DNA from: Podarcis cretensis | Taxonomy: Eukaryota | DNA: 64,000 nt | Direction of reading: 5' to 3' | NCBI GenBank assembly: GCA_951804945.1 | Contig: OX638164.1 | Coordinates: forward strand, 21,700,001-21,764,000 | Shown here: piece by piece, positions 54,101-57,100 of the stretch | Numbering within the stretch: the stretch's first letter is position 1 | Layout of the letters: each line of letters opens with the position of its first letter | The notes under the pieces: model-generated | Told to the model about the DNA's origin: nothing | Databases searched by the model: none | Seen by the model: only the letters and a program-made list of their open reading frames with translations | Position numbers and translations under genes: made by a program

Positions 54101-57100
54101 ACCCAACAGTCAGGGAGCAGGGCAAGTGGTACAATTCCACTCCAGTGTTTCAACCTCCCTTCTGATTTAACATGGAGCATTTCTAAAATTAATTCTGGAA
54201 TGTGCAGTTAAGCTGAAACTTTTCACTGTCAGCCTTTTTATTATCTGCCTTACTGATATGCACAAGTGAACATGTGATGAAACATAGTGCATGCACTCAG
54301 ATGCGCCCCATTGGGTGCATCAATATGATCTTTGGTGCTATGTTTTATCAATGCACACATCAGTAAACTAGTGGGGAGAAAAAGTAAGAACAAAGGTTAG
54401 GAAATAAAAGCTGTGGCAAGCCATGCATATGCTCAGAAATCAAAATGGAATTATGGTACATTCCTAAGGCATTGGTGCCTCTCTGAAGAAAAGACCAGGT
54501 AATTTGGCTCCTTAATATCCAGAGAGTGTTTGGGACATGTTTTTAATAACCTAACCTCTTTTTTAAAAAAGCAAAACACAAAAAACCTTTTCAGATTGTT
54601 GCTTTCTAACTGATATTCTCATTAGTTCCCAGTAAGCTAACCATCACTGTCGCATGTCTTCCTCCCTCTCAAATAAACACGCACACAACTTTACAAATAT
54701 TCTGCAGAGCCTGAAATAAGAAATGGTCCAAATTGAAGAAGTCATCTATATTAAAACTGAACTTATTCCACAAAGTCAATAAGCAATGCTTAATAATTTG
54801 GATATGTTTAGCCATAAATAATGAGCGACATGAGATTTTAAAATTATCATAATGCTGACCCCCATCTCAGTGAGAAATTCAGAGTCAGATTCCAGAGGAG
54901 ATGCTTTGTTTAGTTTTAAAGTAGAAAATATCTATGACCAACAGTGTAGACATTATTAAATATGATAGTTTGGGGGGGTCACCAATGTGGTGCCCCTTCA
55001 CCTACAGATGCCTTCCCTGGCACCCACAAGCTTCCCTTTGTCTGAAATCAGTCTTGAAAGAGGCATTGGTCGCCAATAGAATAGGCTGCAATGTGTGTGC
55101 GTTGCCCACAACATTGTTGTTTCAAATCACAAATCTTGGCTACTTCTTAGTATTACCTCTTCCAGATAACTCCTGACTGAGCCATTGACCCAACCCTTCT
55201 TGTCAATCTACACAAGCTATTGGTAGTTGCCCCACCCATTCTATTCTGCAATGGACATTGCCCCACCCATTCCAATTAATTTGGATGTATAGATATGCCA
55301 TTGTTCTCTGTTACCTCTTTTCCAATAGCTTGCCCTGCTCCAAAGACTGGCTTCCTGTTTTCATCTCAGCTCATCAACTTTTATATACATAGCTTTCCAG
55401 ATCATAATTGGCCCATAAACTGCATGCTGTTCTGTAGAATAGCCAGCTTATTGGCTGACCCCATTCCTTAGCAGATTCTTTGAGGATTACATTACTGAGT
55501 TTAAACAAAAAAAAAATTCCTTCCAGTAGCACCTTAAAGACCAACTAAGTTAGTTCTTGGTATGAGCTTTCGTGTGCATGCACACTTCTTCAGATATGGT
55601 ATCTGAAGAAGTGTGCATGCACACGAAAGCTCATACCAAGAACTAACTTAGTTGGTCTTTAAGGTGCTACTGGAAGGAATTTTTTTTTTGTTTTGACTAT
55701 GGCAGACCAACACGGCTACCTATCTATTACTGAGTTTGTAAGGCATAGTCATACCTGGTGATTGAGGATCAGGTCATAGCTTGCTTATTGGCACAGAGCT
55801 GAGCTCAGAACATGTGTGCACTTCAATGTCTTCAGATAACATACTTTTAGTAACAATATTAAAAATATAAATCAAATTTGTTTTTGTTTTCCCAAACCTA
55901 TGTGTCTATCAGCTAGACCTGTCCTGATTGCATTATAAACTTAGGGCCCACTCATACCTTGGCTTATTGTGCTTTGTGAGCCCCTCCTTCAATTCCCCCT
56001 CATCCAAGTGGCATTCTTCTCCAACTTCTGGTGGCCCATACTTTTGCCTCCTCTTAATTCCAGAGATTCTCTATGCTTTAAAAACTGAATACGAGAGCTA
56101 CAAAATTTGCATGGGGAATCTCCAGATCTAGGGAGGAGGAAGTGTGGGGTAGACATAGTTGGAGGAGAACACCACATGGGTGAAGGGAAATTTAAGCAGA
56201 CACAAGGAGTTCACAATCCACATTAAACTGAGGTATGAAAAGGCTCCAATACTCAGGATTCTCTACCAAATTGGAACTGAAATGACAGCAAGAATTACAC
56301 AAGTAATTCGATTTATGCAAGTATAATTATTCTGTTTGGGTTTTCTTGGCATTCCAGAAACCAGCAAAAACATTGGTATCTGTTTATCCTTAACTGCCAT
56401 CCTATTTCCATTATTTGAAAGTAATTTTCTGGTGCTGCTCCTTCCCAGCCACTTGACTCTCATCTATTTCTGTTGCTTTCTGACTCTTTCCATGTTGCCT
56501 GCAGAATAAAGTTTGCAGACTTGCTGATCTTGGATAGCACCAGTTCTGTGTTCTACAGCTCCTGGTATACTGTGGGTGCCATTTTGATATTTAGTTAGCA
56601 GAGGATAGATCAGGCTTCCTCAAACTCGGCTCTCCAAATGTTTTTGGCCTACAACTCCCATGATCCCTAGCTAGCAGGACCAGTGGTCAGGGATGATGGG
56701 AATTGTAGTCTCAAAACATCTGGAGGGCCGAGATCGAGGAAACCTGGGATACATATCAACAACCTTGTGCACTGTGGGATATTTCCCACTACAGTGGTAC
56801 CTCGGGTTACATACTCTTCAGGTTACAGACGCTTCAGGTTACAGACTCCACTAACCCAGAAATATTACCTCGGGTTAAAAACTTTGCTTCAGGATGAGAA
56901 CAGAAATTGCACAGCAGTGGTGCGGCGGCAGCAGGAGGCCCCATTAGCTAAAGTGGTGCTTCAGGTTAAGAACAGTTTCAGGTTAAGAATGGACCTCCGG
57001 AACAAATTAAGTTATTAACCCGAGGTACCACTGTATTAAGGTGGGCTCTCTCTCTCTTTTTGCAATTGATCAACTTAGCTGAATGGCCCTTTAAACCCTA

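Follow-up and report, generated by a model that had tools for sequence, protein, structure and literature searches.

The 223-bp insert located upstream of exon 2 of an ATP12A-like gene is very probably a recent, dead-on-arrival insertion of a Penelope-like element (PLE), which consists of a head-to-head pair of copies of one end of an abundant repeat, is flanked by a target-site duplication (TSD) and carries a hammerhead ribozyme that is predicted to be locked off. In the window, that is, the 64-kb stretch of DNA that was analysed, an inverted-repeat scan identifies two 94-bp arms (55503-55596 and 55600-55693) that are exact reverse complements, with a TGG loop between them and a T/T pair as the next pair outside the arms. 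The chance expectation of a perfect inverted repeat of 94 bp is approximately 1e-47, and the runner-up with a loop of at most 30 nt in the 64-kb window has arms of 25 bp. Two identical 12-bp TSD copies, in which the 13th bp no longer matches, enclose the insert, which measures 235 bp if one TSD copy is counted. Palindrome, TGG loop and TSD lie exactly where the first-pass annotation had placed them, and that annotation did not contain the 32-bp tail that is unique to the forward copy and missing from the inverted one. The AT content of the target site is only slightly raised (0.60 vs 0.57). The features of the locus are as follows.

55491-55502, no strand: left TSD copy, 12 bp, identical to the right copy and single in the empty allele
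55503-55596, minus strand: 94-bp copy of the element end, inverted and without the tail
55561-55596, minus strand: hammerhead core in ATP12A-sense orientation with a 3-bp stem I, predicted cut position 55564, predicted to be locked in the hairpin
55597-55599, no strand: head-to-head junction, which is also the hairpin loop; the commonest family letters are matched at 55599 but not at 55597-55598
55597-55638, plus strand: minimal type I hammerhead with a predicted cut after C55632, from the core scan, folding and the published min-HHR consensus
55599-55725, plus strand: 5'-truncated forward copy of the element's terminal repeat (pLTR-like end), from contig abundance
55694-55725, plus strand: 32-bp tail present in the forward copy only; family contigs run about 10 nt further
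55726-55737, no strand: right TSD copy, 12 bp
53610-57998, minus strand: host intron, predicted intron 1 of the ATP12A-like gene, from the acceptor at 53610 to the candidate donor at 57998

Elsewhere in the window, an unrelated second hairpin at 27877-27955 has perfect 25-bp arms (27881-27951) and a 21-nt loop, and no further copy of it occurs in the window.

A scan of the 64 kb for hammerhead cores with a stem II of at least 3 bp returns two matches, one in each arm of the insert. The plus-strand motif comprises a CUGAAGA core, an extra A before a 5-bp stem II, GAAA and a palindromic helix III, together with a 6-bp stem I; folded alone, it forms stems I and II around an open core at -11.7 kcal/mol (z -2.2). 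In line with its earlier description as a minimal hammerhead of the PLE type, it agrees feature by feature with the metazoan min-HHR (type I) consensus described in PMC4209133, specifically in the core, the extra nucleotide before stem II, G10.1-C11.1, the palindromic helix III, the UH cleavage site and the short stem I. The second core, which had been placed on the minus strand with a stem I of about 3 bp, is also found there and has 3 bp. The search with hammerhead models that had been proposed as a check did not return the motif: among 42 Rfam matches to E 10 there is no hammerhead family, and no family reaches its gathering score. Two look-alikes, at 55814-55841 on the minus strand (score 28) and at about 61903-61923 on the plus strand, were rejected as they do not exceed shuffled controls. 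No further copy of the insert was found in the window, the best local alignment score of 34 being equal to the best of 12 shuffled queries.

Part of the region 54300-56550 occurs in 20 of the 24 sequencing runs listed, and four organism A samples share 0.80-0.90 of its words; no RNA run is listed among those containing it, which has no bearing on expression. Public contigs of four of the 24 runs, namely X1, X2 and X3 from organism A and X5 from organism B, were compared with 54900-56400 at 85% likeness, and 8,207, 20,625, 17,371 and 23,603 contigs were placed per run. The summed depth over the insert is 37,000-100,000 times that of the flank, a figure that represents contig depth and not copy number, which shows that the insert's repeat is a very abundant family. 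In addition, the segment 56073-56276 reaches up to about ten times the flank's contig depth in all four runs and is a low-copy repeat.

The family contigs also bear on stem I of the hammerhead. The 6-bp stem I noted in the first-pass annotation is present in the window, but it needs 55597-55598, where most family contigs differ, which leaves 4 bp. Among the rows listed (24 of 1,098), 67-132 contigs per run depart from the window sequence before 55599, and the usual stem I of the family therefore appears to have 4 bp. In X2 and X3, 32 and 29 contigs among the rows listed match as far as 55597 and then pass into unrelated flanks; the 6-bp form thus recurs in the family, as a minority among the rows listed.

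Head-to-head junctions are not confined to this locus. Four of the 32 pieces listed (of 70,849) cross the palindrome centre and extend for 31 letters or more to either side. They differ from the window by 5-14 letters and 4-7 gaps, and three of the four come from runs whose contig directly shows the empty site described below; given this divergence and origin, we take them to represent other loci. Similar junctions are seen in other runs at a depth of 30-140. Additionally, 6 of the 15 joints listed (of 433) tie differing points of the inverted arm to 55597-55600. Five of the six carry the label "between: not known", and the clustering is in part a consequence of the window not containing the family's upstream sequence. 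Of the four runs, only X2 shows a preferred tail-less end (42 contigs at 55694), and variation in the length of a T run blurs it. A protein search with the third frame of the forward copy, covering longer proteins only, gave two matches from two candidates, both of them short ENA ORFs with no significant Pfam domains. The sequence P0001 starts with the peptide encoded by the left arm of the window, proceeds through 27 codons that are absent from the window and then enters the direct copy; P0001 reads as a second head-to-head copy with a different junction, and it extends the family upstream of 55599 by at least 27 codons' worth of sequence. We argue that the varying centres reflect a mirror half made anew at each insertion, a point tested on the insert's family only. 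An ATG in loop II opens a short plus-strand frame, 55617-55724, which is stopped at 55644 in the window; at this position another letter accounts for 35-46% of the family depth, and both ENA ORFs read through. By analogy with other PLEs, this ATG may be the start of the parent element's ORF. Scans for an exact 22-nt pattern in metagenome, viral and GTDB collections gave no matches in any of them, which carries little weight as these collections are prokaryotic and viral.

The insert has three structural features of EN+ PLEs, with an inverted 5'-truncated copy beside a direct repeat, a tail at one end only and a short TSD that is single in the empty site. None of the 164 window ORFs of at least 76 aa combines reverse transcriptase (RT) and GIY-YIG domains, the insert itself carries no such ORF, as expected for a stump, and the protein search with the forward copy provided no RT/GIY-YIG link beyond the two short ORFs. 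Membership of the PLEs is thus based on the ribozyme and the anatomy, from which the insert is likely to be the end of a PLE. The initial proposal of an inverted 5'-truncated PLE-type insertion therefore holds as to the anatomy, which agrees with published PLE structure; an RT/GIY-YIG link was not found in these searches. The sole RT among the window ORFs lies on the minus strand at 20881-24252, in an unbroken frame of 1,124 residues that contains RVT_1 (E 1.9e-35) and whose residues 27-1084 align with LINE-1 ORF2p (E 2.7e-151). It is a young-looking L1-type element with the first part of its endonuclease outside the frame, and it was rejected as a coding partner as it has no GIY-YIG domain. 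On the minus strand at 13074-13379, the avian coronavirus accessory protein 5b gives a weak Pfam match that is probably due to chance, its 24.4 bits falling short of the cut-off of 27.

Since no coding partner was found among the window ORFs or by the protein search, the repeat could instead be a non-autonomous hammerhead element, such as a non-LTR retrozyme or a SINE-like unit, in which a short unit moved by PLE enzymes takes the place of the end of a coding PLE. According to published work, animal retrozymes are non-autonomous units related to pLTRs, with a mean consensus of 176 bp in reptiles (bioRxiv 10.64898/2026.07.22.740005), which is consistent with this alternative. However, retrozymes are head-to-tail by definition, and the locus has no two or more head-to-tail units that each carry a hammerhead; it holds a head-to-head pair with a tail and a TSD. 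The continuation of the family upstream of 55599 also argues against a short unit. We consider this alternative unlikely, and the insertion mechanism would be identical under it.

The empty site of the insertion is resolved directly in two runs. In X2, one 1,864-nt contig joins 54900-55490 to 55726-56400 at adjoining record positions 911/910 (record 9), and in X5 one 1,885-nt contig does likewise at record positions 917/916 (record 24); the TSD sequence is single in both. In X3, a contig piece ending at 55726 has 79 leftover letters that fit 55412-55490, beside a variant at 55411, and in X1 a contig piece stops at 55490 with 30 letters left. From these leftovers we infer empty alleles in X3 and X1 as well. 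Over 675 nt of the right flank, X1 does not differ from the window, and one of its contigs begins exactly at 55726, a break that would be expected if a filled allele were also present. No piece bridging flank and insert occurs among the 32 listed of 70,849 in any of the four runs, and contigs show presence, not absence. The occurrence of the empty site in other samples indicates that the insertion is young, and shows that, in this lineage, a PLE-type family with a hammerhead continues to insert. The recent origin claimed in the first-pass annotation is thereby supported on other grounds, with the empty site found directly in two of the four runs and inferred in the other two; the absence of mismatches between the arms, on which that claim was based, mainly reflects how the palindrome was constructed and not its age. 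Within the same left flank, position 55071 is A in all four runs and C in the window, either a private variant or an assembly error.

These junctions also bear on whether the palindrome is an artefact of assembly or library preparation, that is, a fold-back chimera. Palindromes are known to trouble assemblies (PMC8557442), and the filled allele has no independent record among the pieces listed. A fold-back, however, would account neither for the 12-bp duplication, whose sequence the empty allele has once, nor for a tail on one side; the junctions at depth 30-140 in other runs tell against it too, as does the break of the X1 contig exactly at 55726, which a second filled allele would probably cause. 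An artefact is therefore very unlikely.

The host gene is identified by P-type ATPase exons on the minus strand of the window. The best PDB match of one exon is the non-gastric K-transporting ATPase alpha 2 (145.6 bits), compared with 119 bits against gastric H,K-ATPase and 118 bits against Na,K-ATPase alpha 1. Exon 2 of the ATP12A-like gene corresponds to 53469-53609. A candidate coding exon 1 of 9 nt at 57999-58007 has a good start context and a GTGAGT donor, and a second candidate short first exon is located at 60257. The insert, approximately 1.9 kb from the acceptor and 2.3 kb from the nearer candidate donor, falls between exon 2 and either candidate; the initial assignment to intron 1 of ATP12A thus stands as regards the position upstream of exon 2, with exon 1 itself being predicted. 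Weak acceptor- and donor-like words occur inside the insert on the ATP12A-sense strand, at 55679-55667, 55721 and 55638, most of them within the hairpin. The gene region also contains SINE-like and other dispersed repeats in opposite orientations (3000-8007, 42291-42460, 49490-49832 and 56611-57035), which would also give double-stranded RNA. We take the dispersed SINE-like copies to be Sauria-type SINEs, and the repeats of the window suggest that the host is a lizard, probably a lacertid.

In a head-to-head palindrome the antisense arm is transcribed first, whichever strand is read. When transcripts grown in 6-nt steps were folded, forcing stems I and II was found to cost 51-62 kcal/mol on the ATP12A-sense strand and 54-60 kcal/mol on the other strand, and on both strands the penalty applies as soon as the transcript is long enough to contain the whole motif. 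Forcing the same stems in the isolated forward copy costs only 1.2-2.7 kcal/mol, all of these energies being equilibrium predictions for naked RNA. With the antisense arm made first and a penalty of 51-62 kcal/mol, cleavage at the locus is predicted to be absent; the hammerhead of the insert would be locked off by the hairpin and the locus inactive. The earlier notion that the hairpin would compete with ribozyme folding is thus too mild, as the complement precedes the motif on both strands at that penalty. Cleavage after C55632 remains the predicted event, but it would be possible only in an antisense transcript or in an isolated forward copy. Activity is in any case modest in published systems: it is reported to be low for min-HHRs even when free (PMC4209133), one of nine Xenopus hammerhead dimers cleaved (bioRxiv 10.64898/2026.07.22.740005), and cleavage by the anole hammerhead needed its protein (PMC11167929).

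Could the insert nevertheless act as a functional regulatory element of ATP12A, whether as a ribozyme switch, a microRNA-like hairpin or an editing site? The predicted hairpin of the sense pre-mRNA is very stable (-180 kcal/mol for 271 nt), the best score of the Rfam miRNA models is 65.6 bits (gathering score 95), and there are the weak splice-site-like words inside the insert. However, any perfect hairpin yields such miRNA scores, the insert is far from the splice sites, its hammerhead is predicted to be locked, and it is missing at this site in other samples of the closest organism as well as in a relative, which makes a regulatory role highly improbable. The proposals of ADAR editing, Dicer processing and cruciform formation would fit many copies of the family and do not single out this locus, for which the DNA hairpin is predicted at -115 kcal/mol.

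On the basis of these features, we propose that the insert arose by PLE-type retrotransposition. An RT/GIY-YIG protein supplied from elsewhere would cut both DNA strands with a 12-nt stagger. Reverse transcription would then start internally on the element RNA, at the tail end (55725), and reach the hammerhead's 5' edge after approximately 127 nt. The mirror half, ending at 55693, would be made from the same template, either through fold-back of the cDNA or through second priming at an inner start site 32 nt upstream, and repair would fill the stagger to give the TSD. The ribozyme motif would be a passenger of the terminal repeat, likely with no job in ATP12A. In published work, the anole PLE protein cuts and extends both target strands and prefers AT-rich targets, and in vitro two internal RT start sites of the lizard PLE bound the tail (PMC11167929). 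A neighbouring 5'-truncated copy in inverted orientation, together with a tail of 30-40 bp on one side, is a frequent feature of PLE insertions (PMC8557442, PMC3846280, PMC8969392; for the tail also PMC11167929), as in Pen2a_Av with its 31-bp tail and 9-bp TSD (PMC3846280), and de novo PLE insertions in Chlamydomonas have a median length of 128 bp and are all intronic (PMC9977147). The forward copy extends through the predicted cut site and includes a further 33 nt of upstream family sequence, which argues that the template was uncleaved RNA, in agreement with the report that ribozyme cleavage is unnecessary for the activity of the anole PLE protein (PMC11167929).

Both arms carry the window's letter at all nine family-variable sites listed for the right arm (55624-55685). 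The product of the shares of these nine letters is 0.04-0.07, a value that treats linked sites as independent and counts dead copies. We somewhat favour a single template, that is, fold-back, over two independent RNAs, a preference weakened by the linkage of the sites and by the possibly small number of active sources. Another reading of such symmetry, a MITE-like DNA transposon with terminal inverted repeats that almost touch, has the near-total palindrome and the TSD on its side but is scarcely credible, given 32 extra bp on one side in place of symmetric terminal inverted repeats, a centre that varies between copies in place of a fixed interior, and a central hammerhead typical of PLE repeats (PMC4209133). 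Taken singly, the locus matters little: it is a young intronic copy among a great many, and it is predicted to lack catalytic activity. Such insertions are nonetheless presence/absence markers, and they are natural products in which to test how the inverted half and the tail arise, a step left open by the in vitro work in PMC11167929.

A more tentative proposal, possible yet on balance doubtful, is that the palindrome centre marks the element's own transcription start. The family consensus just upstream of 55599 ends in an initiator-like TCAGT, and the L-Y-L codons of P0001, 22-30 nt upstream of that A, are compatible with a TATA-like word. Pen2a_Av has a TATA plus initiator pair (PMC3846280), and the Penelope of D. 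virilis has a TATA-less internal promoter (PMC2377424). The same letters upstream of 55599 also resemble a 3' splice site, and an intron of D. virilis Penelope ends at helix I (PMC4209133); a splice acceptor therefore competes with the initiator, and either would give a fixed 5' boundary. A search confined to openly accessible papers, and therefore weak on this point, found none that links palindrome centres to transcription start. If the proposal is true, the stumps would be complete copies of about 130 nt, running from a promoter-defined 5' end to an internal RT start, and not random truncations. Fold-back would occur at the 5' end of the RNA, and the extra junction bases would derive either from the cap or from stem I of the hammerhead itself. 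In that case, thousands of young, polymorphic insertions across this lizard family would preserve a record of how the second strand is made in Penelope-type transposition, and each insertion would silence its own ribozyme while yielding perfect double-stranded RNA against its parent.

Set against known systems, the insert is most likely an unremarkable example of a type already described. As in Pen2a_Av and the EN+ PLEs (PMC3846280, PMC8557442), it combines an inverted 5'-truncated copy with a direct copy, a single tail of 31-32 bp and an empty site with one TSD, and its 12-bp TSD compares with 9-10 bp in those elements. Unlike them, it has no ORF between the repeats, just two ends joined across 3 nt, and it belongs to a very high-copy family. 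Its hammerhead resembles the metazoan PLE min-HHRs of PMC4209133 in the CUGANGA core, the extra base before stem II, G10.1-C11.1, the palindromic helix III and the short stem I. Pairs of min-HHRs are described there on opposite strands approximately 100-700 bp apart, whereas the two cores of the insert are 9 nt apart, back to back and fully complementary. The closest motif listed is that of the turtle Chrysemys picta (PMC4209133 Fig. S3), which has the same core and helix III letters with compensatory changes in stems I and II and which is not marked there as linked to a PLE ORF. The Poseidon/Xena-type motifs of fish, Xenopus and pit viper in the same source differ from that of the insert in the letters of stem I, loop II and helix III. 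Compared by description and not by sequence, the insert is like PAc, the Poseidon element of Anolis carolinensis, in having a hammerhead approximately 100 nt upstream of the element end and, on the mechanism proposed above, a tail bounded by two RT start sites and a target of which both strands are cut and extended (PMC11167929). As its hammerhead is not of the Poseidon/Xena type, the family may belong to a clade other than that of PAc. Our guess for this clade is Neptune. Finally, the insert shares with non-LTR retrozymes a short, non-coding sequence, a type I hammerhead, a relation to pLTRs and occurrence in reptiles, and differs from these head-to-tail tandem units in being a single head-to-head pair (bioRxiv 10.64898/2026.07.22.740005).
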